Origin: an uncultured Bacilli bacterium
GTDB lineage: Bacteria > Bacillota_I > Bacilli_A > RF39 > UBA660
Reading direction: 5' to 3'
Length of the DNA: 64,000 bases
Assembly (NCBI GenBank): GCA_934122395.1
Contig: CAKOWQ010000001.1
Span: 125,602-189,601, forward strand
Under the pieces are notes generated by a model. It was not told where the DNA came from and made no database searches. It worked only from the letters and a program-made list of their open reading frames with translations. Shown here in pieces: positions 762 to 54,072 of the stretch. Numbering within the stretch: the stretch's first letter is position 1; every line of letters begins with the position of its first letter. Position numbers and translations under genes: made by a program.

Positions 762-1337
762 ATGAAAAAGATTGACAATAAGGGGTTCGTAATTGTAGAA
801 ACTATTATCGTTGCTGTATTTATAATAGGTATTTGTACTTTTCTATTTGCAAACTTTATACCTTTGATAGGTGAATATGAAAGAGTAGAAAAATATGATA
901 CTTTAGAGAAAAAGTATAAAACAAATGAGATAAGAAAAATGATTTTAATGGAGTTAGATAATTCCAATGAGGAAATATTTACGTCAACTAATTCAAGTGT
1001 ATATAAGATATATTCTACTGTAAAGACTAAAGAAGGTGAAAAAGAAGTAACTACTAATGAAATATGTGGTTATTTGAAATCTGTTAATTATTGCAATACT
1101 CTTTTAGGAGAAGACTTTATGAATGTTAAAAGTGTTGTTGTAACGCCATTTAAATTAAGTGATTTTAAGAGCCTAGCAAAGAACAGTAATAAGTTTACTA
1201 AAGCAGAAAAACAATATATTGATTATTTACCTAGTTATAAGAAATATTCTAGTAGATATGATAGTTATTATAGAATACTTGTATTTTATAATGATGGAGA
1301 ATTTTCTAATATAGAGGTGCATTATGAAATTGGATAA
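762..1337 (+). CDS. Prepilin-type (pseudopilin/minor pilin) protein
   Basis: N-terminus MKKIDNKG|FVIVETIIVAVFIIGI matches a class III (prepilin peptidase) signal: G-F, Glu at +5 and a hydrophobic helix. Divergent from the ComGA-like gene. Confidence 0.7.
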   Translation: MKKIDNKGFVIVETIIVAVFIIGICTFLFANFIPLIGEYERVEKYDTLEKKYKTNEIRKMILMELDNSNEEIFTSTNSSVYKIYSTVKTKEGEKEVTTNEICGYLKSVNYCNTLLGEDFMNVKSVVVTPFKLSDFKSLAKNSNKFTKAEKQYIDYLPSYKKYSSRYDSYYRILVFYNDGEFSNIEVHYEIG

Positions 1338-1875
1338 TAAAGGTTTTACAGTAATAGAATTAATTTTAAGTTTTACTTTAGTTATGTTTCTAACGCTAGG
1401 AATGTTTGCTCTAGTTAATAATTATCGAGCAAGAGAAGAAAAAGAATCAGTAAGAAAAGAACTTTTAGCTTACCAAAATACTTTAACTCAAGATATTTAT
1501 AATGATACTCTAGAAAGAAAAGTTAAAAGTATGAATTATTGTAAGGATAATAGTGGGCAAGTAATAAATCAATGTATTAATATAGATTTTTTAGATGGTA
1601 CTTCAAAAGAGTTACAAATAAAAAATAGAGAAATAGAAACAGAAGAGGATGGTACTACTTTTAGTTACAGTACTTTTAATATAATTTATGGTGGGGTTGC
1701 TTATGAAAATCCTGAACCTAAATTTGCAACGATTGTAAATGATTATATATTAACTATGACTACTGTTGATAATAACTTGGAAAAAGGTGTTATTTATAAA
1801 ATAAAGATTCGTATTAAATATCAGGATATAGATGATGAATTTGTAGTTGAGGTAATTACTACAGGTAGGGAATAA
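1324..1875 (+). CDS. Prepilin-type (pseudopilin/minor pilin) protein
   Basis: N-terminus MKLDNKG|FTVIELILSFTLVMFL (G-F-T-V-I-E prepilin motif). Start overlaps the upstream pilin gene by 14 nt, indicating translational coupling. Confidence 0.7.
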   Translation: MKLDNKGFTVIELILSFTLVMFLTLGMFALVNNYRAREEKESVRKELLAYQNTLTQDIYNDTLERKVKSMNYCKDNSGQVINQCINIDFLDGTSKELQIKNREIETEEDGTTFSYSTFNIIYGGVAYENPEPKFATIVNDYILTMTTVDNNLEKGVIYKIKIRIKYQDIDDEFVVEVITTGRE

Positions 1876-2845
1876 TAATATCAAAAGTAAAGTAGATTAT
1901 ACACCCTGTTAGTAATGCATGTAATATTCTTGCAGTTAAATATGGCAAGTATTTAATGTTAGTATTAGATAAAATATTCATAACTTGCATATGAATACTT
2001 AAACCACCAAAGGATATAAATGATCCTATTATGGTGGCTTTTATTTTTAAAGATAAATTTAATAAAGCAATGTTTTTTATGCCACCAGTCATTTCTAATA
2101 TTCCACTTATAATAGCACTAGTAAACTTATTAGTATTAAAGATATTTTTTATTAGAGAATTAATAATTAAAAAAACAGTAATTATACCTAGCAAAAGTAA
2201 TAAAGTATTTATAGTTTTAAAAATGCTATTACTAAGAATAGTACTAAAAGAAGAATTATTTTTTATTCTTCTTTTATACATTTTATTAATTCCTGATTTA
2301 ATTGATATTTTTTCTTGTACATATTTCTTTTCTTTAGGCCTATAAATTATTGCTATTATAAAGTTACTTAAAATATGAATACTCAAAATAAAAATTCCAA
2401 CATTTTTGTTGTTTAATAATAAAACTCCTATGGTACCTATAACAAATAAGGGATTAGAAAAGTGGTTAAATTTTAATAGATAACTAGCGTCAAATTCTGA
2501 TATTTGATTGTTTGTAAGTAGTTCATTAATATATTTGCTACTGCTAGGAAAACCTGATATTAGGCTTCCTATTAATACAAAAGATGCTTCCCCTGGTAAG
2601 TGAAAGATTTTATTCATTATGTTTTTTAATAATTCTCCTAATAATTCAACAAATCCATAATTTATTAGTAGTTCTGATATCAAAAAGAAAGGAAATAGTG
2701 AAGGAATTAAATTATCTTTCCAAATACTTATAGAAAAAGCTACTGCATTCATAACAGTAGTAGGAAATGTTAAAAATAAAATTATAATGGTAACTAATAA
2801 AACAGTAATTATTAAAGTTGTTATTTTTGTTTTCATAATTATCAA
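1859..2845 (-). CDS. ylbJ: Sporulation integral membrane protein YlbJ (nucleoside-transporter-like)
   Basis: 328-aa polytopic membrane protein with YlbJ-like sequence. Adjacent divergent YlbL-like gene, as in B. subtilis. Confidence 0.6.
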   Translation of the reverse strand: MIIMKTKITTLIITVLLVTIIILFLTFPTTVMNAVAFSISIWKDNLIPSLFPFFLISELLINYGFVELLGELLKNIMNKIFHLPGEASFVLIGSLISGFPSSSKYINELLTNNQISEFDASYLLKFNHFSNPLFVIGTIGVLLLNNKNVGIFILSIHILSNFIIAIIYRPKEKKYVQEKISIKSGINKMYKRRIKNNSSFSTILSNSIFKTINTLLLLLGIITVFLIINSLIKNIFNTNKFTSAIISGILEMTGGIKNIALLNLSLKIKATIIGSFISFGGLSIHMQVMNILSNTNIKYLPYLTARILHALLTGCIIYFTFDIIIPYL

Positions 2846-2878
2846 TCTTTCTGTTATAATTAAATAGGATGTGATTTT

Positions 2879-3895
2879 ATGCTTGGTAAAATATATGATA
2901 AATTCATAAAATTTATAAAAGAAAATTATAAAGAAATAATATTTTTAATACTATTTTATCTTATTATGACTTTTCCAGTACCATATTATATTTGTGTGTC
3001 TGGAGGTACTATAGATGTCGGTAAAAGACTAGATGTTGAAAACGGCTATACTGAAAAAGGCTCTTTTAATTTAGCGTATGTTTCGGAACTTAGAGGAACT
3101 ATTCCAACTTACTTATTAAGTTATGTTATTCCAACTTGGGAGAGAATTAAAATCGATAGTTATCAATTAAATGAAGATGAAACTATGGATGATGTTTCTA
3201 ATAGAGATAAAATGTATTTATTGGATGCAAATCAATCTGCTATATATGTCGCATATACTAAAGCAGGAAAGACTTTTACAATTAATAATCATCATTATTA
3301 TGTTTACTATGTTGATGAAAAAGCTAATGACAAAATAAAAGTAGGGGATGAACTATTAGGAGTAGATTCATCTAATATAGTTGATCTCGATGCTTTTAAA
3401 GAGTATATAAACACTAAGAATGTAGGAGACGAATTAAACATTAAGTTAAAAAGAAATAACAAAGAGTTTGAAGTTTCTACAACCGTATTTGAAGAAGAAG
3501 GAAAAAAATATGTTGGGATTGCTTTCTTTGATTTATTAGATTATGAAGTAGATCCTAGTATTACGTTGAAATTTAAGGAAAGTGAGACTGGACCATCAGG
3601 TGGACTTACATTATCTCTTGCTATTTATAATAAACTAGTTAGTGAAGATATAACTAAGGGTAAAAAAATAGTAGGAACTGGTACTATTGATCTTGATGGT
3701 ACAGTAGGAGAAATTGGTGGAGTCAAATATAAACTATTAGGAGCGGTTAAGAAAAAAGCAGACATATTTATTGTTCCTAATGGAAGCAATTATGAAGAAT
3801 GTATTAAGTTAAAAAAAGAAAAAGGATATAAAATTAAAATTATTGGTGTTGATACATTTGATGATGCCGTTAACAAACTAAAAGAATTGAAATAA
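2879..3895 (+). CDS. ylbL: PDZ domain / Lon-like S16 C-terminal protease domain protein (YlbL-like)
   Basis: 338 aa with an N-terminal TM segment, a PDZ-like middle and a C-terminal motif GPSGGLTLSLAIYNKL…KIVGTGTID typical of the Lon proteolytic domain. Synteny with ylbJ. Confidence 0.65.
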   Translation: MLGKIYDKFIKFIKENYKEIIFLILFYLIMTFPVPYYICVSGGTIDVGKRLDVENGYTEKGSFNLAYVSELRGTIPTYLLSYVIPTWERIKIDSYQLNEDETMDDVSNRDKMYLLDANQSAIYVAYTKAGKTFTINNHHYYVYYVDEKANDKIKVGDELLGVDSSNIVDLDAFKEYINTKNVGDELNIKLKRNNKEFEVSTTVFEEEGKKYVGIAFFDLLDYEVDPSITLKFKESETGPSGGLTLSLAIYNKLVSEDITKGKKIVGTGTIDLDGTVGEIGGVKYKLLGAVKKKADIFIVPNGSNYEECIKLKKEKGYKIKIIGVDTFDDAVNKLKELK

Positions 3896-3958
3896 TCAGT
3901 TCTTTTTTCTTTAAAAAAATACCTCTGTTTGGTATAATAATTGATGTGGTGAAGTAAT

Positions 3959-6511
3959 ATGAAACGTAGTGAAGTAGATAGGACTAAATTAAGTCCTATG
4001 ATGCAGCAATATTTAGATATTAAAGACAAGTATAATGATACCATTATCTTTTTTCGTCTTGGAGACTTTTATGAAATGTTCTTTGAAGATGCAGTTATCT
4101 GTAGTAGAGAATTAGAACTAGCATTAACTGGTAGAAATGCAGGCCTTGAAGAAAGAGTTCCAATGTGTGGTATTCCATATCATGCTTATATTGGATATTT
4201 AACTAAATTAGTAGATAAAGGTTATAAAGTGGCTATCTGTGAACAACTAACAGATCCTAAAGATACTAAAGGTATGGTAGATAGAGATGTCGTTCAAGTA
4301 ATTACTAAAGGTACTATGCTTGATAATACTTTGAATGAAAAAGATAATAGTTATGTTGGTAATATATATGATTTTGAATATTGTTATGGGGTTACTTATA
4401 CTGATATTACTACCGGATACTTCTATGCTTTAATATTAGAACACGATCAAAATAAACTAATAAAAGAAATAGTTAATCGTAATATTATTGAAGTAATAGT
4501 AAATGATAAAATAGATCGTGAAATAATAAGCGTATTGAGAGACAATTATCATTTATTGGTAACTATTACTGATGGATTATGTGAGGATAGTGAATATAGT
4601 TATTTATATGATAAGATTGATGATATTAGAATAGTAACGGCAGTAAAGCACTTATTACAATACTTGATTGACGTTAAAAAAGGTAATTTATCACACTTAC
4701 AAAAAGTAGAAGTAGTTGATACTAATAAATATTTAACTTTTGATATACATACTAAAAGGAACCTAGAACTTACTGAAACTATTAGATTAGGTGAAAGAAC
4801 TTATTCACTTTTATGGCTACTTGATAAAACTAAAACAGCAATGGGTAGTAGAGCATTAAAATCTAATATTGAAAATCCATTAACTGATGTTAAAGAAATA
4901 AATTCACGATACGATATTATTGAAAAATTACTTACTGAATTTATATTAAAAGAAGAATTGATACGTAATTTAAATGAAGTATATGACTTAGAACGTTTAG
5001 CCGGAAGAATTAGTTATGGTAACTTAAATGCTAGAGACTTGTTACAGTTAAAAAACTCTTTAAAAGTATTACCGGATATAAAAAGAATATTGGAAGAGAT
5101 TAAATATCCTAAGACTATTAATACTTTGGATGATGTATATGATTTATTGGAAAAATCAATTAATGATGATGCTCCTATTACAGTAAAAGAAGGTGGATTA
5201 ATTAAAGAAGGTTATTCTAGTGAGTTAGATGAATTAAAAAGTATTAGTAGTGGTTCTAAAGACTTTATTTTAAAAATAGAACAAGATGAAAAAGAACGTA
5301 CTGGAATTAAAAACTTAAAAGTAGGATTTAATAAAGTATTTGGTTATTATATAGAAGTATCTAAGAGCAATATTCCTTTAATTAAAGATGAGTATGGCTA
5401 CGATAGAAAACAAACTCTAGCTAACTGTGAGAGATTTATTACACCTCTTCTAAAAGAAAAAGAAAATATTATTTTAGGGGCTGAAGAGAAAATAATTAAT
5501 TTAGAATATAAATTATTTATTGAAATACGTGATTATATTCGTGAATACATTGGAATAATTCAAGATGTTTCAAGAGTTATTGCTGAAGTTGATATGATGG
5601 CTTCTTTAGCGACTGTTAGTGAAGAAAATGGTTATGTTAGACCTGTTATTACTAATGAACGAGTAATTTCTATTAAAGATGGACGTCATCCAGTAGTAGA
5701 AAAGGTAAGTAAAAAAGAATATGTACCTAATGATATTATGATGGGAAAAGGTGTTGATATATTACTTATTACTGGACCTAATATGGCTGGTAAATCAACT
5801 TATATGCGACAACTTGCAATTACTGTTATAATGGCTCAAATAGGGTCTTTTGTACCAGCTAAGAGTTGTACTATTCCTATATTTGATAAGATCTTTACAA
5901 GAATAGGTGCTAGTGATGATTTAGTTAGTGGTGAATCTACTTTTATGGTAGAAATGAAAGAAGCTAATAATGCTATTCAAGAAGCTACTCCTAATAGTTT
6001 AATACTATTTGATGAATTAGGTAGAGGAACTGCAACATATGATGGTATGAGTCTTGCTCAGGCAATACTTGAATATATTCATGATAAGATTAAAGCTAAA
6101 ACATTATTTTCAACTCACTATCATGAATTAACAACTCTATCAGCTGATTTAACAAATTTAAGAAACGTTCATGTAAGTGCTATAGAAGAAGATGGCAAAA
6201 TTACTTTCTTACATAAAATAAAACAAGGGGCAGTAGATAAAAGTTATGGTATCCATGTAGCGTCTTTAGCAAAGCTTCCTAAATCTTTAATTGAACGTGC
6301 TAATGAAATACTTGATGTGTATGAAAATAAAAACAATAAAAAGCAACCGTTCGTTCAAACATCGTTATTTTTAAATGCTGATGAAAAAGAACAAGAAGAA
6401 GAGAATTATGTAGAAGAAAAAATAAAAGAAATAGATCCGTTAAAAATGACTCCTATTGAAGCTTTAAATTTCCTATACGAATTAAAAAAGTCTTTAAAAG
6501 ACAAAGAATAA
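3959..6511 (+). CDS. mutS: DNA mismatch repair protein MutS
   Basis: 850 aa. Motifs GPNMAGKSTYMRQ (Walker A), DELGRGT, STHYHEL. N-terminal mismatch-binding domain. Confidence 0.95.
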   Translation: MKRSEVDRTKLSPMMQQYLDIKDKYNDTIIFFRLGDFYEMFFEDAVICSRELELALTGRNAGLEERVPMCGIPYHAYIGYLTKLVDKGYKVAICEQLTDPKDTKGMVDRDVVQVITKGTMLDNTLNEKDNSYVGNIYDFEYCYGVTYTDITTGYFYALILEHDQNKLIKEIVNRNIIEVIVNDKIDREIISVLRDNYHLLVTITDGLCEDSEYSYLYDKIDDIRIVTAVKHLLQYLIDVKKGNLSHLQKVEVVDTNKYLTFDIHTKRNLELTETIRLGERTYSLLWLLDKTKTAMGSRALKSNIENPLTDVKEINSRYDIIEKLLTEFILKEELIRNLNEVYDLERLAGRISYGNLNARDLLQLKNSLKVLPDIKRILEEIKYPKTINTLDDVYDLLEKSINDDAPITVKEGGLIKEGYSSELDELKSISSGSKDFILKIEQDEKERTGIKNLKVGFNKVFGYYIEVSKSNIPLIKDEYGYDRKQTLANCERFITPLLKEKENIILGAEEKIINLEYKLFIEIRDYIREYIGIIQDVSRVIAEVDMMASLATVSEENGYVRPVITNERVISIKDGRHPVVEKVSKKEYVPNDIMMGKGVDILLITGPNMAGKSTYMRQLAITVIMAQIGSFVPAKSCTIPIFDKIFTRIGASDDLVSGESTFMVEMKEANNAIQEATPNSLILFDELGRGTATYDGMSLAQAILEYIHDKIKAKTLFSTHYHELTTLSADLTNLRNVHVSAIEEDGKITFLHKIKQGAVDKSYGIHVASLAKLPKSLIERANEILDVYENKNNKKQPFVQTSLFLNADEKEQEEENYVEEKIKEIDPLKMTPIEALNFLYELKKSLKDKE

Positions 6512-6565
6512 TAATATTGATAAATTAAGTAATTATTGCTATAATTTCATTAAGGTAGGTGTCTT

Positions 6566-6817
6566 ATGAAATTTGCAATAATAAAAGATGGAAAAGAGAT
6601 TGAGTGTGAAATTTTATTTACTTTTCATGATGATAGTAATGATTTAAATTATATTGTGTATACTGATGGTACTAAGGATAGTGACGATGAGTTAGAAATA
6701 CTAGCAGCAAGATATAAAGAAAAAGATAAGAAGTATATTTTAGAGGAAATCAAGACTGATTTTGAATGGAATTTAATAGATAATATGATTGAATCATATT
6801 TTGAGGAAGTTAAATAA
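6566..6817 (+). CDS. DUF1292-family small protein
   Basis: 83-aa acidic protein with the Firmicutes DUF1292 pattern …YIVYTDG…ILAARY. Confidence 0.5.
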   Translation: MKFAIIKDGKEIECEILFTFHDDSNDLNYIVYTDGTKDSDDELEILAARYKEKDKKYILEEIKTDFEWNLIDNMIESYFEEVK

Positions 6818-6819
6818 TT

Positions 6820-8046
6820 ATGGAACATTTTGAAGTATTTGTAGATCACAGTGGACACTTAGTTTTAAATCGTTATGACACTAGAAACCCATCTAGGATA
6901 GAAAATATTGCTAGGAAAGCAGATGTATATTATCCTTTGAAGGAATTATCTAAATATCCTATAAGGCACGTTGATATTTATGAGCAAAGGGATCTATCAG
7001 TTACGTTTGATGGATTCGTAGTTGATTTTATTAATTGTGATAGATTAGACCGCTATGAAATGGTGATGGCACCAATGATTAAAAAAGTGGATAAGGCTAT
7101 GCAACAAGATAGGATAAGAGAGATAAAAAAGTCTAGAGAGAAAAAAGGGTTAAATACTGCACCTAAAGTTAAACGAACAAATAAACATTCTGGGCTTCAA
7201 TTGGTAGCCGGGGCTGTTGTTCTTGCAACTCTTGCTACAACTGCACACTTTATGTTGGGAGCAAAGGCAGAAGAATCTGTTAAGGATAATCCTCCAACCA
7301 ACATTGAAATTGTTGAAGTAGGTAATAAAGATGATGAATTTTCTATTGATAATCTAGTATTTGTTGATAATAAGGTAGCTAATAATATTTCAGATTCTAA
7401 TACTATAAGTATTAATTATGAAGACAGATCTAATACTGAAAAAGCAAGAAAAACAAAAGCACTGTATGGTGATATTATAGAAAAATATGCAGAAGATTAT
7501 GGACTTGATCCTATTTTAGTTACTGCTGTTGCTACCCAAGAACGTGGAGTTCACTCTAGCATTATGGATAAGGGCGGTGCAACAGGACTAATGCAAATTC
7601 AAAATTCAGTATGGGTAGGTCATGAAGTATCAGCCTATAATTTTGACACGGGCAAAAAAGAAAGATTTGAAGTTACTGATGAAATGCTTGGAAATGTAGA
7701 ATCTAATATAAAAATTGGATGCATGATTTTACAAAATGCAATGGAATATATGAATTACAATGTTTTAGCAGGTATCCAGTGTTACAATATGGGATATGGA
7801 AACATGAACAAGATACTTACAGAGTGCGCTATGAAAAATGGTACTACTAAACAAGCAATATTAAACGATCCTAATAATATTAGTTGGATGGATTATCGTG
7901 ATATTATCTCAGTAGGTGATCAAAAATATGCTGAACATGTACTATCTTGGATTGGACCTAATGTAAATATTAAAGTTAGTACTAATAACAAAGATACTTC
8001 GGTATTATGCTGTAACAATACTATTAGTGACACAAAAGTATATTAA
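6820..8046 (+). CDS. Membrane-anchored lytic transglycosylase (SLT domain) with a novel N-terminal cytoplasmic domain
   Basis: Central TM (LQLVAGAVVLATLATTAHFM). SLT family-1 motifs TQERGVHS…GATGLMQI…CYNMGYGN. Start 3 nt after the DUF1292 stop. Confidence 0.65.
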   Translation: MEHFEVFVDHSGHLVLNRYDTRNPSRIENIARKADVYYPLKELSKYPIRHVDIYEQRDLSVTFDGFVVDFINCDRLDRYEMVMAPMIKKVDKAMQQDRIREIKKSREKKGLNTAPKVKRTNKHSGLQLVAGAVVLATLATTAHFMLGAKAEESVKDNPPTNIEIVEVGNKDDEFSIDNLVFVDNKVANNISDSNTISINYEDRSNTEKARKTKALYGDIIEKYAEDYGLDPILVTAVATQERGVHSSIMDKGGATGLMQIQNSVWVGHEVSAYNFDTGKKERFEVTDEMLGNVESNIKIGCMILQNAMEYMNYNVLAGIQCYNMGYGNMNKILTECAMKNGTTKQAILNDPNNISWMDYRDIISVGDQKYAEHVLSWIGPNVNIKVSTNNKDTSVLCCNNTISDTKVY

Positions 8047-23473: not shown

Positions 23474-24583
23474 ATGAGTAAAAAAGTAGTAATAGGGATG
23501 AGTGGTGGAGTTGATTCTTCCGTTGCAGCAATATTATTAAAGGAACAAGGTTATGATGTAATAGGGCTATTTATGCGTAACTGGGATAGTTCGGTTAATA
23601 ATGATTATTTAGGTAATCCTGATCTTTTGGGTGACATATGTCCACAGGAAAGAGATTATAATGATGCAATTAAAGTGTGTGAAAAAATAGGTATTCCACT
23701 ACATAGAATAGACTTTGTTAAAGAATATTGGGACTATGTATTTACTTACTTTTTAGATGAGCTAAAAAAAGGTAGAACGCCTAATCCTGATATTATGTGT
23801 AATAAATATATTAAATTTGATTATTTCATTAGAGAAGCTAAAAGATTAGGGGCAGATTATATTGCAACAGGTCATTATGCTAAAATGAAAGATGGATATT
23901 TATGTAGAAGTAAAGATACTAATAAGGATCAAACTTATTTCTTATCTCAGCTTAACAAAGAACAATTAGAAAATGTTATTTTCCCTTTAGGAGATATTGA
24001 TAAGACTGAAGTACGTGAGATTGCTAAAAAATATGGATTAGTAACTGCTACTAAAAAAGATTCAACTGGTATTTGTTTTATAGGAGAACGAAATTTTAAA
24101 GAATTTCTAAAGAATTATTTACCTAATCAAAAAGGTAAAATAGTAAATATTGATACTAAAGAGGTTGTTGGTGAACATATTGGTCTTATGTATTATACAA
24201 TTGGTCAAAGACGTGGACTTGATATAGGTGGTAATGATGAAAGATTATTTGTAGTTGGTAAAAATCTTAAAGATAATATTTTATATGTTGCATTAGGCGA
24301 TGATAATGAATATTTGTATTCAGATAGCTGTATCATAGATAATATTAATTTTAATTGCTCTTTAAGACCTCAAAAATGTACTGCTAAATTTAGATATAGA
24401 GCAAGTGACTATCCAGTTAGTTTAGAATATATTAATGATAACGAAATATTAGTTAAATATGATCATATAAAATCAGTTACTCCAGGACAAGCGTGTGTTT
24501 TATATATGGATGAAAAGTGCATAGGTGGAGGAATCATTAAAGAAGTTAGAAAAAATAACGAAAAATTGTGGTACTTATTGTAA
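23474..24583 (+). CDS. mnmA: tRNA-specific 2-thiouridylase MnmA
   Basis: PP-loop VVIGMSGGVDSSVAA. 369 aa. Confidence 0.92.
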   Translation: MSKKVVIGMSGGVDSSVAAILLKEQGYDVIGLFMRNWDSSVNNDYLGNPDLLGDICPQERDYNDAIKVCEKIGIPLHRIDFVKEYWDYVFTYFLDELKKGRTPNPDIMCNKYIKFDYFIREAKRLGADYIATGHYAKMKDGYLCRSKDTNKDQTYFLSQLNKEQLENVIFPLGDIDKTEVREIAKKYGLVTATKKDSTGICFIGERNFKEFLKNYLPNQKGKIVNIDTKEVVGEHIGLMYYTIGQRRGLDIGGNDERLFVVGKNLKDNILYVALGDDNEYLYSDSCIIDNINFNCSLRPQKCTAKFRYRASDYPVSLEYINDNEILVKYDHIKSVTPGQACVLYMDEKCIGGGIIKEVRKNNEKLWYLL

Positions 24584-24644: not shown

Positions 24645-25730
24645 ATGAATGATAGACAAACAGTATTAGAAATTAATATAGAAAATTTTAAACACAATAT
24701 AAAAGAAGTAAAGAAGTTAGTTGGTTCGAAAGAAATAATGTATGTAATGAAAGCAAATGCTTATGGTACTTATTTAAATAAAAATATTGATGTAATAAAA
24801 GATTTTAGAATAATTGGTGTTGCAATAGTTAAAGAAGCAATAGAATTAAGACGTCTTGGTTTTAAAGGTGAAATATTCCTATTAAATCAACCATACATAG
24901 AAGATATAGAAAATATTATTAAATATGATGTAACTGTAGGTGTTGCTGATTATTGCTTTATTAAGGAACTTTGTAAGAATAATAATAAGTTTAGAGTACA
25001 CCTTGAAATCGAAACGGGAATGGGTAGAACGGGCATTAATATTAATGAGTTAGATAAAGTACTAGATTTATTAAAAGAATCATCAAATATTACTGTTGAA
25101 GGAATATATACTCATTTAGCAGTAGCTGATAGTGATTTATCTTTTACTTTGCAACAAATGGATATATTTAAGAATGCTGTATCAAAAATTAAGCTAGTTT
25201 TTCCTAATATAAAATATATTCATGCTGAAGCATCTAATGGAATTCAAAACATAAACGATAGTTTTTGTAATCTAGTACGTCCAGGGATGATTTTGTATGG
25301 TTATAATACAACTAATAGACCTAAATATAAACTCGATTTAAAGCCAGTAGCTGTTTTAAAAAGTAAGATTTCTTTTGTTAAAGAAGTACCTATTAATACA
25401 AGTATTAGTTATGGTAGAACTTTTATAACTAAAAGAGAAAGTAAAATTGCTACAGTTGGTATTGGATATGCCGATGGTATTAGAAGAATTTTATCAAATA
25501 ATGGTAGAGTTGTTGTTAATAATAAAGTTGCTAATATAGTAGGTACAATATGTATGGATTCATTTATGATAGATGTAACTGATGTTGATAATGTTAAATG
25601 TGGTGATGAAGTATATATATGGGATAATAATTTAATTACACTAGATGAAATAGCTTCAAATTCTAATACTATTAATTATGAAATTTTATCTACTATTTCT
25701 AATAGAGTACCAAGAAAATTTATTGACTAA
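24645..25730 (+). CDS. alr: Alanine racemase
   Basis: 361 aa. PLP-lysine region VMKANAYG and racemase C-terminal domain. Confidence 0.85.
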   Translation: MNDRQTVLEINIENFKHNIKEVKKLVGSKEIMYVMKANAYGTYLNKNIDVIKDFRIIGVAIVKEAIELRRLGFKGEIFLLNQPYIEDIENIIKYDVTVGVADYCFIKELCKNNNKFRVHLEIETGMGRTGININELDKVLDLLKESSNITVEGIYTHLAVADSDLSFTLQQMDIFKNAVSKIKLVFPNIKYIHAEASNGIQNINDSFCNLVRPGMILYGYNTTNRPKYKLDLKPVAVLKSKISFVKEVPINTSISYGRTFITKRESKIATVGIGYADGIRRILSNNGRVVVNNKVANIVGTICMDSFMIDVTDVDNVKCGDEVYIWDNNLITLDEIASNSNTINYEILSTISNRVPRKFID

Positions 25731-25837: not shown

Positions 25838-26605
25838 ATGGATAAGTTAAATAACTTACTAAATGAATTAGGGGTTTCAAAGGTTAGATTAGCTAAATAT
25901 TTAGGAGTATCTAGACAAATGTTATATAATTATTTAGCATTAAATTCATTAAGCGATTGGCCAAAGGAAAAGGCAACTAAATTAATGAGTTTATTAAATA
26001 TTAAAGATGAAGATGAATTAAAATCTATTACGGTAGATGGCAATTATATAATTGATGTTGAAGGAAGATTAAATGAAGGTGTTAAGGATTCTTCAGAACG
26101 TGAAGTATTAGCTGATTTAAAAGGATTTAATAAGAAAGAACAAGAATTATTAACTGATATAATTAATTTATTAAAAGAAAAATTACAAGAAGATACAACA
26201 AGAGATACATATAATGCTTATGTTTATTTATATCATTATTTACAATCTATGGAGACTTCTAAAGAATTAAAATATATACTTGCTTATATGTCAAAATCAA
26301 TGGGATTTACTGATCCAATGGAATTTGTATTTAATCCTGATCAACAATTTATTTTTGAGAGTATATTGTTCTCTGGATTAACATTATATAATAATGGTAG
26401 TGCTTCTAAAGTTAAACTAGCAGAATCTCATAAGAGATTTGTTCAAGATATTGAACATAAAAATGAAGAAAAGTTAAGTAGAACTCAAGAATTAAATACA
26501 GCAAAGGTACAAGCTTTAAGAGAACTTGGCTATACTGAAATAAATGAAGAAAATGCTAAAGAAGTATTAGAAAAAATTGCAGAAATTCAATCTAGAAAAG
26601 TATAG
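25838..26605 (+). CDS. HTH (XRE-like) domain protein
   Basis: N-terminus LGVSKVRLAKYLGVSRQMLYNY is helix-turn-helix-like. The rest is unassigned. Confidence 0.5.
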   Translation: MDKLNNLLNELGVSKVRLAKYLGVSRQMLYNYLALNSLSDWPKEKATKLMSLLNIKDEDELKSITVDGNYIIDVEGRLNEGVKDSSEREVLADLKGFNKKEQELLTDIINLLKEKLQEDTTRDTYNAYVYLYHYLQSMETSKELKYILAYMSKSMGFTDPMEFVFNPDQQFIFESILFSGLTLYNNGSASKVKLAESHKRFVQDIEHKNEEKLSRTQELNTAKVQALRELGYTEINEENAKEVLEKIAEIQSRKV

Positions 26606-26690
26606 TTGTTGCAAATTATATTTTTTATGATAAAATAAGGTTAATTTAAGTTATGTTCAATTAGAATATAGCTTTTTTTTGTGAAACGGA

Positions 26691-27500
26691 GTGATTAAAT
26701 TGAAAGTAGCTGAAGAGATAAAAATTTGGATTAAACTATTAAAAGAGAATATTGGGTGGATAACTGCTACGGTTGCTGCTTTTGTTGCCGTTAGTGCTTT
26801 CCTATTAAATATTTGTAGTTATATCAAATACAGTTCTTTATCTTCGTATTACGGAACGAGCATAGAATTTTTTACTTACGATTACTGGTATTATGTTTAT
26901 ACAATTGTTTTGCTAACTTTGATTATCTTGGCAGTGTTAGCTTGGTTTTTTTCTTTCAATGATTTATTTGGATCACTTTTTTTGAAGAAAAGTAAAAAGT
27001 ATATAATAAGTAATGCTGTAATTATTATATCTTCTTATGTAATGTTATTTTTAATTTTAAAATTAATATTTGGAATAATTCAATCTCTAATTTTAACAAC
27101 ATTAATTCAATTGTTTTCTTATGCCATAGTAAATTTTATATACAAAAAATTTTCTGATATTGATAAAACTAGTAATGATGCTGATTATAATCCATATATA
27201 GAAGCCAAACATTATTTTAAAAAAATACCATTTTACTTTATAATGATAATCATTTTAACTGTAGTGATTAACATGTCGGAATATGTTGCTGAGAAAGAAT
27301 ATAAAATAGTCAATACTGAGAATGATAGTTGTCAAGCTATAGTTTATACTACTAAGGACTATTATTTAACGTTGGATTGTGAAATTGAAGATAAGAAGTT
27401 AACTTTATATAAAGGAACTGAAACTAAAATAGCTACAGATAATGTTAAAACAAAACAAATAACGTTTGATAATGTACACATTAAATTAAATAACGATTAA
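26691..27500 (+). CDS. Hypothetical polytopic membrane protein
   Basis: Several TM segments. No family recognised. Confidence 0.4.
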   Translation: MIKLKVAEEIKIWIKLLKENIGWITATVAAFVAVSAFLLNICSYIKYSSLSSYYGTSIEFFTYDYWYYVYTIVLLTLIILAVLAWFFSFNDLFGSLFLKKSKKYIISNAVIIISSYVMLFLILKLIFGIIQSLILTTLIQLFSYAIVNFIYKKFSDIDKTSNDADYNPYIEAKHYFKKIPFYFIMIIILTVVINMSEYVAEKEYKIVNTENDSCQAIVYTTKDYYLTLDCEIEDKKLTLYKGTETKIATDNVKTKQITFDNVHIKLNND

Positions 27501-27501
27501 A

Positions 27502-27540
27502 AAAGAGAAGGGGAACTAATATTAAACCTTTCTCTTTTTT
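27502..27540 (+). terminator. Intrinsic terminator
   Basis: aaaagagaagg…cctttctctttttt. Confidence 0.5.
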
Positions 27541-27768
27541 AGTTTTCTAAGTGTACTACGAATTAAATGTATATTATTGATTAGTAAACAATAAGTTAAT
27601 TATTTATTTAGTTAGAATAATAAGTGATATGTTTTATTAGATAAAGTTACATCAAACTTGATATTATAAAACGCAAAATACATTAATTTAATAAGAATTA
27701 AAATAATCAAATTTTATTATTAATAAATGAAAGTATTATTAATTATTGAATTTTTATTTGTTTTTATA

Positions 27769-27796
27769 ACTTCCGATAATTTATATTATGTTGACT
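27769..27796. other. dif: Candidate dif (XerC/XerD chromosome-dimer resolution) site
   Basis: ACTTCCGATAATTTATATTATGTTGACT matches the Bacillus dif ACTTCCTAGAATATATATTATGTAAACT at 23/28 positions. It lies in a 700-bp gene-free AT-rich region 1.8 kb from xerD. Confidence 0.45.
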
Positions 27797-28197
27797 TCTT
27801 ATAATATTGCTTTTAAGTGACTAGTTTTATATTACTTACTACTATGCTTATTTATATATGTATTCTTACTCTTATTTAAGAAATATATAATATTATTATT
27901 TATTATTAATACTATTATATAATATATTTATTGTAATTAAAATCTGTTTTTATAAATTATTTATTTAAATGCAATTTAATTAATTTATATATTATATATT
28001 ATTTGATATTTCATTGTTTAGACTCAATTATTATTTATTCATAATCGTTAATGAGATGGATAATTACCTTACTTTTTAATTCTCATTTCGTTTTAGAACG
28101 CATAATTTTTAAGTATGTTTCCCCTACTTTAAATTAATAAAATGTAATAGGGGAATAATTAATAAAAAAATGGGAAAAGTAATAGTGGAGGTAAATT

Positions 28198-28383
28198 ATG
28201 AAAAAGAATCAAAAAATTAACTGTAATGTTGAATCATGTGAATACAATGATTGTAATTGTCATGAATGTAATTTAAAAGAAATAGAAATTTCATGTGATT
28301 GTGGTTGTAATAATGATGACGTTAAACATCAAAGTGAAACAATATGTTCAAATTTTAAAGCAAATAAAAAGCAAGATAATTAA
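28198..28383 (+). CDS. Small Cys-rich protein, DUF1540-like
   Basis: 61 aa. RBS GGAGG. CNVESCEYNDCNCHECNLKEIEISCDCGC pattern. Confidence 0.5.
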   Translation: MKKNQKINCNVESCEYNDCNCHECNLKEIEISCDCGCNNDDVKHQSETICSNFKANKKQDN

Positions 28384-28412
28384 TCTTGTTTTTTTTGTTA
28401 TACTCTCCTACT

Positions 28413-29582
28413 CTATTTTAATTGGCTTAAAAAACTAGTTCCCATGTCTGTATTTGGCACATTAAAGTTCTCAGCAATAGTAGCACCTATATCAGCTAAA
28501 GAGTTTAAAATAGGCATCTTTTTGGGTTCTTTAAAGTTTCTTCCAAAGACAATGATAGGTAAATTTTCTCTTGTATGATAATTACCAGGGAATGTTGGAT
28601 CATTACCATGATCAGCTGTAATTATTAATAAGTCATCATTATTTAACTTATTTAATATCATAGGTATTTCTACATCTAATTCTTCAATTGATTTTGCATA
28701 CCCTACTACATCACGTTTATGTCCATACATAGTATCAAATTCACTTAAATTAGTAATACATACTCCATTAAAGTTTTTAGCCATTATATCAGTCATTTTA
28801 TTAATTGTATCTATATTAGTAGTAGATGATTTAATGATTTTAGTAATACCTTCACCATCTACAATGTCATTTAATTTACCAATAGATATAACACTGTAAT
28901 CATTATCTTTTAAATTATTTAAAACACTCTTTTTTTGTGGCTTTAAAGTGTAATCTTTACGGTCGTTAGTAAATCTATATTTACCATTTTTCCCTACGAA
29001 TGGTCTTGCTATTACTCTAGCAACTCGCCATTCTTCCTTTTCGGTTATCTTTCTTATTTTCTCACAATAAGAGTATAATTTACTTACTGGTATTATATCT
29101 TCGTGTGCAGCTATTTCAAGGGTTGAATCTCCAGAAGTATAAAGTATTAAAGAGCCATAGTTTAAATGTCTATCTCCTAATTCTGCTAGTATATTTTCAC
29201 CACTAGTAACTTTATTACCAATTAAACGTTTTCCTATAGTTTTTTCTATTGCATCAATTAACTCGATAGGAAAAGCTTTTTCTGAAAAAGTTTTAAAAGG
29301 CATTTTGTTATCTAGTCCTATTATTTCATAATGACCTGAAATACTATCTTTACCATGATTTGTAGGTCTTGCAATTGTATAGTATGCATCTACATTCGGA
29401 TTATCATCCATATTAATAGTATTTAAAAATCCTAGTTTTTTTAAATTTGGAATAAATAGATCATAATTATCCATAATATGTTTTAAGGTATTTGCACCAT
29501 TATCATTATACTCATTTGCATCAGGTGCTTCTCCGACACCTAATGAATCTAGTATTAATACAAATATTCTTTTAAAAGTCAT
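28413..29582 (-). CDS. deoB: Phosphopentomutase
   Basis: 389 aa metalloenzyme-superfamily N- and C-termini. Adjacent to xerD as in B. subtilis (drm–ripX). Confidence 0.85.
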   Translation of the reverse strand: MTFKRIFVLILDSLGVGEAPDANEYNDNGANTLKHIMDNYDLFIPNLKKLGFLNTINMDDNPNVDAYYTIARPTNHGKDSISGHYEIIGLDNKMPFKTFSEKAFPIELIDAIEKTIGKRLIGNKVTSGENILAELGDRHLNYGSLILYTSGDSTLEIAAHEDIIPVSKLYSYCEKIRKITEKEEWRVARVIARPFVGKNGKYRFTNDRKDYTLKPQKKSVLNNLKDNDYSVISIGKLNDIVDGEGITKIIKSSTTNIDTINKMTDIMAKNFNGVCITNLSEFDTMYGHKRDVVGYAKSIEELDVEIPMILNKLNNDDLLIITADHGNDPTFPGNYHTRENLPIIVFGRNFKEPKKMPILNSLADIGATIAENFNVPNTDMGTSFLSQLK

Positions 29583-29594
29583 AATAACCGCTCC

Positions 29595-30641
29595 TTACTT
29601 TTTGCTTCTAGGATGATATGATTCATAATCTTGTCTTACTTTTTGATTTGATATATGAGTATATATTCTAGTTGTACTTATATCGGAATGTCCTAAGAGT
29701 TCTTGTACAACTCTTAAGTCTGAACCGCTTTCAATCATATGAGTTGCAAAACTATGTCTTAAAGTATGTGGGGATACATCTATATGTATATCACATACTT
29801 TTAATCTATGTTTTAACATCTTAAAAAAGCCACTTCTACTAAGCTGTAATCCATGATTATTCAAAAATATATGATCATCTTTTTTCATTATATAAAGTTC
29901 AGGTCGCATTTCTAAGTAGTTCTTCATTGAATCAATGACATATTCACCGATTGGAATCATTCTTTCTTTTGAACCTTTTCCCATACAACGAACTATACAA
30001 TTTTCGAGATCTATATCATTCATAGTTAGATTTAACAGCTCACTAATTCTTAATCCTGTTGCATATAATAATTCTAACATAGCTTTATCACGATAGTCAA
30101 ATATAGTTACTGTATCAATATCTAGTAGCCTATTTACTTCTTCAACAGTTAAAACTTTAGGTAATGTTTTAGGAAGTTTAAGTCGGTTGATTGTTAAAGC
30201 TACATTAGAAGAAGTTAGGCCTTCTTGATATAAGTATGTATGAAAATTTTTAATAGATGTTAATTTTCTAGTGATACTTTTTACTTCTAGTTTCTCATCA
30301 ACTGATAAATATTCAAGGTAATCTTTTATATTTGATTTTTGAATACTATTTGTTTTATAAATATTATTAGAATGTAAATATCTAGCATATTTTTCTAAAT
30401 CGTTTTTATAAGAATTATATGTATTTTTAGATAGCCTTCTTTCAAATATTATATAATTTAAATATTCATCAATTTTATATTCTATATCACTATATTCACT
30501 AATACTATCTATGTCATGAGTATTAATAATATTATCCCCTACTCTAATGTAATCACCTGTTTGTTCAATTACTAACCCCTCATAGCTTTTACTGCTTTTA
30601 ACGATTAATCTTACCTTTTTATCTATATAGTTAGTACTCAT
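29595..30641 (-). CDS. xerD: Tyrosine recombinase XerD with an ~58-aa N-terminal extension
   Basis: C-terminal LRHSFATHMIESGSDLRVVQELLGHSDISTTRIYTHI with the catalytic RHRY residues. XerD-like core starts about residue 60. Confidence 0.85.
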   Translation of the reverse strand: MSTNYIDKKVRLIVKSSKSYEGLVIEQTGDYIRVGDNIINTHDIDSISEYSDIEYKIDEYLNYIIFERRLSKNTYNSYKNDLEKYARYLHSNNIYKTNSIQKSNIKDYLEYLSVDEKLEVKSITRKLTSIKNFHTYLYQEGLTSSNVALTINRLKLPKTLPKVLTVEEVNRLLDIDTVTIFDYRDKAMLELLYATGLRISELLNLTMNDIDLENCIVRCMGKGSKERMIPIGEYVIDSMKNYLEMRPELYIMKKDDHIFLNNHGLQLSRSGFFKMLKHRLKVCDIHIDVSPHTLRHSFATHMIESGSDLRVVQELLGHSDISTTRIYTHISNQKVRQDYESYHPRSKK

Positions 30642-53244: not shown

Positions 53245-53512
53245 AAAGTTTTCCTCCTGAAAGCGTATTTAAAGTTCGAATAGTTTAAACAAATTATCTA
53301 GTGGTACAAGTGTCGTAGTAATCTACGACTCTTTATCAAAGAAAATTGATATAAGAATCAATCTATAAATAAATTATAATACATATCTTTGAAAATTTAA
53401 CGAAAACTCTCGTCTGTTCGATTGTTTTATAAATTTACTTATTATATAATTTTAATAGGAACGTTTGATGTGAGTGTCGTCCTCCAATCTTGAAATAGAA
53501 AGGAGGGATACA

Positions 53513-53605
53513 ATGAAGAAAAGAACTTTTATAATAAGAGTCCTTCTTCTTATTGCTATCATTTTATTACTCCTTACCCTATTGGTAATAGCAATAAAAA
53601 TATGA
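53513..53605 (+). CDS. Small hydrophobic peptide (30 aa), type I toxin-like
   Basis: RBS AAAGGAGGG. MKKRTFIIRVLLLIAIILLLLTLLVIAIKI. Followed by a hairpin plus T7 terminator. Confidence 0.4.
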   Translation: MKKRTFIIRVLLLIAIILLLLTLLVIAIKI

Positions 53606-53647
53606 CACTCTTTCATCTCTGATTGAGTGTCAATACTAAGTTTTTAG

Positions 53648-53697
53648 AGGCGACATTCACTTGCAGAATCGAATGTTCCTCTTTTTTTATTTTACGC
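53648..53697 (+). terminator. Intrinsic terminator after the small peptide gene
   Basis: agaggcgacattc…gaatgttcctct followed by T7. Confidence 0.45.
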
Positions 53698-53727
53698 AAG
53701 TTTTCTTGCTTACATACCAATGATAAC

Positions 53728-53760
53728 ATAAAAAAGAACTTTTAACAAGTTCTTTTGTTT
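53728..53760. terminator. Bidirectional intrinsic terminator (downstream of the tRNA genes)
   Basis: aaaagaactt-ttaac-aagttctttt with flanking T/A runs. Confidence 0.55.
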
Positions 53761-53795
53761 ATAGTAAATTCGAATAGTTCGAACAGATTCTCTAG

Positions 53796-53879
53796 TGGTG
53801 CGGGTAACAGGAGTTGAACCTGCATGCCTAAGGCGCTAGATCCTAAGTCTAGTGCGTCTGCCAATTCCGCCATACCCGC
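53796..53879 (-). tRNA. tRNA-Leu (anticodon TAG), class II with long variable arm
   Basis: Reverse complement GCGGGTATGGCGGAATTGGCAGACGCACTAGACTTAGGATCTAGCGCCTTAGGCATGCAGGTTCAACTCCTGTTACCCGCACCA. Cloverleaf with encoded CCA. Confidence 0.8.
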
Positions 53880-53887
53880 AAAATAAA

Positions 53888-53964
53888 TGGTGGACCCTAT
53901 AGGACTCGAACCTATGACCGTCCGGTTATGAGCCGGATGCTCTAACCAACTGAGCTAAGGGTCC
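53888..53964 (-). tRNA. tRNA with CAT anticodon, most like tRNA-Ile2 (lysidine) / tRNA-Met
   Basis: Reverse complement GGACCCTTAGCTCAGTTGGTTAGAGCATCCGGCTCATAACCGGACGGTCATAGGTTCGAGTCCTATAGGGTCCACCA. Closely resembles Bacillus tRNA-Ile(LAU). Confidence 0.8.
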
Positions 53965-54072
53965 ATGACTTTTTAATAATAACATATTATTTTAAGTTAA
54001 TCAATATCAAAAATAAACTTTTTCTCTTTTTTCTATTAAATATCTTTGTTATAATGTTTATGAGGTGTAAAT

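Follow-up and report, generated by a model that had tools for sequence, protein, structure and literature searches.

A probable chromosome dimer resolution site (dif) at the replication terminus of an uncultured low-GC gut Bacilli bacterium, close to a xerD-type gene

The DNA analysed here, hereafter the window, is a stretch of 64 kb from an uncultured low-GC gut bacterium of the Bacilli. A greedy gene call of the window gives 60 genes, 90% coding sequence and a median gap of 50 bp. An earlier note on this DNA had pointed to a gene-free, extremely AT-rich and unusually large gap of ~700 bp at 27501-28197, and this description holds: no open reading frame (ORF) of at least 40 aa was found between these positions, the GC content is 17.1% as against 27.6% for the window, and the gap, at 912 bp, is the largest of the window when a 61-aa DUF1540-like ORF is ignored, and measures 697 bp when this ORF is counted. 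The second-largest gap, at 53245-54072 (828 bp, 32% GC), lies between diverging genes and coincides with a local GC-skew reversal at 53-56 kb. Relatives of the locus, given L numbers here, were found via the recombinase encoded in the window, in metagenome-assembled genomes that bear the label 'uncultured Bacilli bacterium' and come from gut samples, among them human and rabbit ones.

The gap is not empty. Besides a dif-like site, it carries a terminator-like hairpin and a conserved block of ~125 nt. The hairpin (27498-27541, + strand; inverted repeat I5) follows a 269-aa ORF and has 15-nt arms that are 93% complementary, with A and T runs on its flanks; a consensus terminator scan called no site in the region and missed this hairpin because its loop measures 14 nt. 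The non-coding block (28037-28160, + strand) is near-identical in L002, the closest other species, amid otherwise scrambled spacer, has partial matches in L003-L007, and lies ahead of the DUF1540-like ORF with its ribosome-binding site and start codon; it is probably the promoter or leader of this gene. An RNA element is not claimed for the block, since an Rfam scan of 26500-29000 at E<=1 returned nothing and the fold z-score of -1.99 is only marginally better than that of shuffled sequences. The ORF itself (28198-28383, + strand), small and Cys-rich, lies directly right of the dif-like site, scores 21.5 bits against PF07561, just below the cutoff of 22.1, and adjoins dif also in L002, L003, L006, L007, L063 and L074. 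What remains of the AT-rich gap is an ordinary spacer between convergent genes, with the hairpin on the left and the probable DUF1540 promoter or leader on the right, and among 14 terminus spacers no conserved motif besides dif rose above the shuffled background.

The dif-like site occupies 27769-27796 on the + strand and consists of an XerC-type arm (ACTTCCGATAA, 27769-27779), a central region (TTTATA, 27780-27785) and an XerD-type arm (TTATGTTGACT, 27786-27796), that is, two imperfectly inverted arms of 11 bp around a 6-bp centre in the classical 28-bp architecture. We compared it with the B. subtilis dif, ACTTCCTAGAATATATATTATGTAAACT, which is experimentally confirmed according to Kono et al. 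2011 (PMC3025954) and served there as the search seed. The two agree at 23/28 positions, with 9/11 in the XerC arm, 5/6 in the centre and 9/11 in the XerD arm, and the inner ATAA/TTAT dyad and the asymmetry between the arms (6/11) are equal in both. Agreement with the E. coli dif, also taken from PMC3025954, is 20/28, of which the XerD arm contributes 9/11. The earlier note had quoted these letters correctly and had counted 23 matches spread over both arms, as we did; its description of the reference as a Firmicutes dif consensus was mistaken, the sequence being that of the confirmed B. subtilis site and not a consensus (PMC3025954). It had also proposed a search for further dif-like copies, and within the 64-kb window 27769-27796 was the only position with at most five mismatches to the B. 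subtilis site, the runner-up having eight.

A cumulative-skew maximum with converging genes marks a replication terminus, and a minimum with diverging genes an origin. In the window the former signature falls at 27000-28400 (no strand assigned). Over the first ~27 kb the GC skew is positive (+0.23 to the left of the site), and between 28 and 64 kb it is negative (-0.19 to the right); the cumulative G-C curve peaks at 28397, ~600 bp from the site; and gene orientation flips at the same place, with 24 genes on the plus and 3 on the minus strand to its left and 3 and 30, respectively, to its right. Most related loci likewise carry the site at a local skew switch. The suggestion that this is the dif of the chromosome terminus is thereby supported by the skew switch, by the convergence of genes and by nine relatives, and the skew analysis that had been named as a possible refutation yielded, within the window, nothing against it. 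Dif sites have been recognized in the literature by their match to B. subtilis dif, their occurrence as one copy per genome and their location at the terminus (PMC1914069; PMC3025954). The 28-mer matches in sequence, sits at the terminus and is single within the 64-kb window.

Oligomer polarity was considered as a further line of evidence. The heptamer GAAGAAG points toward the site 42:6, a polarity inseparable from the general purine-rich bias of the coding strand. The B. subtilis SRS octamer GAGAAGGG occurs twice in the window, both times directed at the site (2:0), and was set aside because one of the two copies is part of the stem of the hairpin at 27498-27541 and at least two copies arise in 9/100 shuffles. 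On these grounds neither motif was taken as independent evidence, and when polar 7- and 8-mers were sought without bias, nothing but generic purine-rich coding words came up.

To the right of the DUF1540-like ORF lie deoB (phosphopentomutase; 28413-29582, - strand; NF003766, 468 bits) and the gene for a tyrosine recombinase of 348 aa (29595-30641, - strand). The latter passes the cutoff of the NCBIfam XerD equivalog (TIGR02225, 335.6 bits against 329.6) and stays below those of the XerC model (305.2 bits against 335.15) and the XerS model (123.1 bits against 267). It contains the Pfam domains Phage_integrase and SAM_1 and all catalytic motifs (R, K, H-x-x-R, H, Y), and the same residues are found in a protein from a Hadza human gut metagenome. 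Its stop codon lies 1,799 bp from the end of the site, in agreement with the 1.8 kb given earlier. No other tyrosine recombinase, XerC/CodV included, was found in the 64-kb window, nor was a gene for FtsK/SpoIIIE identified. We also observed an N-terminal extension of ~55 aa in this XerD (30477-30641, - strand, the first ~55 codons), which is common to L002-L005 and L007 and absent from L006 and all more distant relatives; it is probably a small beta-rich domain, with weak Sm-like, KfrB and DUF6897 hints.

The genes on the left, all on the + strand, are mnmA (23474-24583; Pfam tRNA_Me_trans), alr (24645-25730), a gene for a 255-aa helix-turn-helix (HTH) protein that we call hth255 (25838-26605), and an ORF for a 269-aa membrane protein (26691-27500). 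The alr gene and the 269-aa ORF are missing from these positions in every related locus and therefore look like recent insertions beside the terminus, which suggests recent gene gain at this place in the present species. The 269-aa ORF belongs to no family in Pfam, NCBIfam or PHROG and has no homologue in the related loci; a phage remnant was considered for it and rejected, as neither PHROG nor INPHARED offered a match and the ORF bears no likeness to the prophage elements described below. The product of hth255 combines an XRE-type N-terminus, a five-helix DNA-binding domain of the lambda-repressor type, with a helical C-terminal domain for which no solved relative was found. Its family counts 6,169 database matches and has neither a Pfam family nor a name.

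A dif-like 28-mer is present in nine related species, 1.6-3.4 kb from xerD; in most of them, no more than a few hundred bp separate it from the peak of the local cumulative skew. The order xerD-deoB-dif is kept in L002-L008, L011 and L012. Across these species the arms are near-invariant, A[C/G]TTCC[G/T]ATAA and TTATGTT[G/A]ACT, with L012 somewhat more divergent, whereas six different centres occur among the relatives (TTTATA, CTTAGA, TTAATG, TTAATA, TTGATA and TATATA). Conservation ends ~2 nt past the XerD arm, and the flanks cannot be aligned among the nine; in an alignment of the full spacer with that of L002, the 28-mer stands as an island of identity in scrambled AT-rich DNA. Constrained, protein-contacted arms around a free crossover centre are the selection pattern expected of a recombinase target. 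Further afield, a scan of viral contigs with the dif pattern of the clade gave 36 matches, which range from 26 to 51% GC, and this form of dif is therefore widespread in Firmicutes. The same two arms (ACTTCCGATAA and TTATGTTGACT), here around GC-rich centres, were found in 14 metagenome contigs of 62-69% GC (L062, L064-L073 and L075-L077). That so AT-rich a pair is kept at such a composition must be due to selection for a generic recognition sequence, one common to very distant bacteria.

Several relatives differ in arrangement. The orientation of dif relative to the flanking genes is flipped in L008 (9592-9619), L011 (12655-12682) and L053 (9417-9444). In L004 (206-4006), a block of xerD, deoB, dif and hth255 is inverted as a unit relative to mgsA and dnaJ, and the skew maximum is no longer at dif. 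L057 (1759-1786) and L058 (1572-1599) carry a near-perfectly palindromic dif-like site, ACTTCCCATAA TATATA TTATGGAAGGT, in which both arms are of the XerC type (ACTTCC-like) and which lies at the point of gene convergence beside a homologue of hth255; this could be a single-recombinase variant in that lineage.

Prophages provide a further view of the site. One of the viral contigs recovered in the scan, L031 (7,095 bp, 27% GC), begins with a homologue of hth255 followed by ACTTCCTATAA TTAATA TTAAAAATAAT at 1097. There follow an XRE repressor, small membrane ORFs, a Zot-type ATPase (phrog_197, 5.6e-12; PF05707, 27 bits with a cutoff of 20.3), a 414-aa protein and a G2P-type rolling-circle Rep (phrog_3419, 4.7e-28; PF23343, 1.1e-17), then a second site, ACTTCCTATAA TTAATA TTATGTTAACT, at 6832, and a Cys-rich ORF similar to the DUF1540 gene. 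The two sites, repeated in direct orientation, agree fully in XerC arm and centre, and only in the first has the XerD arm degenerated; both junctions of this inovirus-like element (1097-6859, 5.7 kb) are thus seen. Filamentous phages that integrate at dif by means of the host Xer proteins leave a functional dif behind (PMC3025954; XacF1, PMC5666396), and the junctions of L031 show this pattern.

The metagenome contig L063 (3,497 bp, 29% GC) carries the exact 28-mer of the window, abutted on its left by a different inovirus-like element (1-2812) of which one junction is present. Its genes encode a Zot-like ATPase (phrog_197, 2.5e-9) and a Rep_OBD/RepB_C protein (PF01719, 2.3e-38), and the ORF of the Rep protein continues across dif. 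The host flank on the right is 95% identical to L002, whose empty site has CTTAGA as its centre and not TTTATA. The integration in L063 appears to have replaced the central region of dif, and the very 28-mer found in the window seems to have served as the crossover point in this sister species. A possible third junction, in L080 (3065-4031), joins a perfect XerD arm and centre to a foreign XerC arm with an XRE repressor gene adjoining, the contig ending before the other junction. A dif site was revealed through the integration of mobile elements by the same reasoning in Legionella (PMC9765430), and the junctions in L031 and L063 are likewise natural, if indirect, evidence of Xer crossover at the site. 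Two further direct dif-like copies, L025 148-175 and L016 14320-14347, belong to one viral contig of 40,024 bp, where they lie 39.7 kb apart, each in an imperfect repeat of ~270 bp near a contig end; this pair could stem from a tandem element, from strain variants joined in assembly, or from a prophage whose att repeats are long.

Given the sequence match, the position and the conservation, we consider it highly likely that 27769-27796 is the chromosome dimer resolution site (dif), at the place where both replication forks meet, and the 28-mer is very probably the genuine dif of this uncultured gut bacterium. Could it be a chance likeness in very AT-rich spacer DNA? The spacer has 17% GC, the centre and inner arms of dif are themselves AT-rich, and a second AT-rich near-palindrome at 27982-28009 comes within eight mismatches of dif. 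Against this, first-order Markov sequences of 64 kb, simulated 200 times with the composition of the window, never got down to five mismatches, and 1/200 did so at the 17% GC of the spacer; the mismatches avoid the GC-containing outer positions of the arms; identical arms are present in high-GC genomes as well; and across nine species the 28-mer alone is conserved. Such cross-species conservation effectively refutes a chance origin, which we regard as next to impossible. [quoted passage not shown] This proved right in kind, as the prophages of L031 and L063 sit at a homologous or identical site, and for that reason it is compatible with the dif reading; as to the window, no integrated element was found there. 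The two direct sites that frame the element in L031 have no counterpart here: no second copy of XerC arm plus centre was found in 64 kb, and the window has no nucleotide or translated similarity to either element.

A stricter form of this alternative, in which 27769-27796 is an attL or attR remnant left by such an element in place of a functional chromosomal dif, could draw on the insertions at this exact sequence in L063 and at the homologous site in L031, and on the species-specific 269-aa ORF, which lies on the side of dif where the elements of L031 and L063 lie. It could also draw on a weak direct pseudo-site at 26874-26901, with 5/22 arm mismatches; its centre is different, the stretch codes for a Tyr-rich part of the 269-aa ORF, and by expectation ~0.25 sites of this kind occur in 64 kb, so that we dismissed it as chance. 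An inverted partial match of 39 nt at 27391-27429 was likewise put down to chance, its orientation being wrong for an integration product. In view of the two intact arms of the window site (the remnant junction of L031 has a degenerate XerD arm), its lone occurrence, the dissimilarity of the window to both elements and its place at the skew switch, as in the relatives, a mere remnant seems very improbable, and we retain the reading as a functional dif.

Which recombinases act on this dif is a separate question. We favour with good, if lesser, confidence a two-recombinase model with XerC and XerD, by analogy with the well-studied systems. The alternative is that XerD alone acts on both arms, like XerS on difSL or XerH on difH, with xerD and dif forming one module. 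The conserved xerD-deoB-dif arrangement is what raises this possibility: the gene lies near dif in 9/9 close relatives, the block in L004 that was inverted as a unit includes both, and closeness of dif to its recombinase gene has been named as a possible hallmark of single-recombinase systems (PMC5357621), the classical xerC and xerD genes being far from dif (PMC1914069; PMC5357621). The lack of a second recombinase gene in the 64-kb window and the palindromic, doubly ACTTCC-like site of the distant lineage L057/58 would also fit.

The site itself argues otherwise: it is of the classical 28-bp kind, its centre measures 6 bp, and its arms are unlike each other (6/11), each agreeing at 9/11 positions with its CodV or RipX counterpart in B. 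subtilis, and the same arm pair recurs in unrelated genomes of 62-69% GC. The recombinase passes the XerD equivalog cutoff and reaches less than half of that for XerS (123 versus 267 bits). Moreover, the linkage is lost in the deeper lineages L053 and L078, which keep the same dif, so that proximity of xerD does not define the system. In B. subtilis, xerD and deoB are likewise adjacent, as ripX-drm, and part of the linkage is therefore old synteny. With an atypical site wanting and the XerS cutoff not reached, the window would not belong to the XerS/XerH class, and action of XerD alone appears rather unlikely.

Under the two-recombinase model, sister chromosomes that have formed a dimer would be resolved at this dif. 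A XerC-type recombinase would bind the left arm and XerD, encoded 1.8 kb away, the right arm; as the septum closes, two copies of dif would synapse there; and exchange of strands in pairs across the 6-bp centre would add one crossover, by which the monomers are restored. This scheme is drawn by analogy with CodV/RipX of B. subtilis and XerC/XerD of E. coli. The XerC partner, the order of strand exchange and the coupling to cell division through a translocase of the FtsK/SpoIIIE type are inferred parts of it, while the sequence match, the position at the terminus, the pattern of conservation, the orthology of XerD and the apparent use of the site for prophage crossover in relatives can be read from the genomes themselves.

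The most constant neighbour of dif on the left is hth255. Homologues were found in L002-L008, L011, L031, L053, L056, L057, L060, L078 and L080, and in eight of nine informative lineages the 3' end of the gene lies 46-1,164 bp from dif. Homologues of 36-58% identity adjoin dif in L031, L053/55, L056, L057/58, L060/61, L078 and probably L080; in the one exception, L059, neither a dif nor a skew switch was found within 8 kb. On the far side of dif these lineages vary, with xerD-deoB, PNP, MazG, GerA or Zip genes. The gene stays with dif through the inversion in L004 and after replacement of the far side, xerD included, in L053 and L078, and within the close clade it is more conserved than XerD, DeoB or MnmA. 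As mnmA is nearly as constant a neighbour (the two genes are adjacent in L053, L056, L060, L078, L079 and L080, with alr intervening in the window), the simplest explanation is inherited synteny of the mnmA-hth255 pair at the end of one replichore.

On positional grounds, hth255 is tentatively also a candidate for a dedicated dif or terminus factor in a large group of uncultured low-GC Bacilli, an idea we hold to be doubtful. It may in that case regulate or activate Xer recombination, organise the terminus or arrest forks. An HTH protein, XafT, activates Xer catalysis for a Vibrio phage (PMC6744903), and according to reviews activation of CodV/RipX has been demonstrated for neither of the B. 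subtilis translocases (PMC5357621), so that such a factor could, if real, fill this gap and would bear on how Xer recombination is controlled in Firmicutes.

A dif at this position fixes the replication terminus of a widespread uncultured lineage of human and animal guts, and a known terminus aids the checking of assemblies, the analysis of replichores and the estimation of growth rates from metagenomes. The junctions further suggest that, in gut Bacilli, host Xer is put to use by filamentous phages in much the way that CTX-phi uses it in Vibrio, and that phage integration can rewrite the central region of dif. The added value of the locus lies in these corroborating junctions, in the clade-level linkage of xerD and dif, and in the hth255 lead.

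Among known systems, the position of hth255 beside the terminus site recalls rtp beside Ter in B. subtilis and tus beside TerB in E. coli, a likeness of position only, and with XafT of TLC-phi, which controls Xer catalysis (PMC6744903), it shares the HTH character. No similarity of sequence or fold to RTP, Tus, MatP or XafT was found, and the terminus spacers have no conserved motif other than dif. The prophages of the relatives resemble the IMEX CTX-phi and XacF1: in both L031 and L063, small elements with Zot and a rolling-circle Rep lie at dif, and L031 has a duplicate of XerC arm and centre and, at the far junction, a degenerate XerD arm, so that a functional dif is kept. As has been reported for XacF1 (PMC5666396), the att sequence of L063 is part of a phage ORF. 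The prophages differ in that their hosts are uncultured low-GC gut Bacilli and not Proteobacteria, and that the window itself carries none.

With XerS/difSL and XerH/difH the window shares the linkage of recombinase gene and site across a clade. Unlike difSL (31 bp, 11-bp centre), its site has 28 bp and a 6-bp centre, its recombinase is an XerD and not an XerS orthologue, deoB and a small ORF separate xerD from dif where the genes of those modules abut their site, and the linkage disappears in deeper lineages. From classical systems, in which the xer genes are distant (PMC1914069), the window differs in having xerD only 1.8 kb away. It differs from B. subtilis in five substitutions in dif, in the ~55-aa N-terminal extension of XerD, confined to a sub-clade, and in that a CodV partner was not found within the 64-kb window. 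The likeness to dif/CodV/RipX of B. subtilis nevertheless extends to the 28 bp in 11-6-11 arrangement, the 23/28 matches, ACTTCC in the outer left and TTATGT in the inner right arm, and the location at the terminus. The XerD orthologue of B. subtilis adjoins deoB (drm), too, as it does in the window. A classical dif at a terminus is an ordinary feature of a well-known kind, unsurprising in itself, and is seen here in an uncultured lineage.
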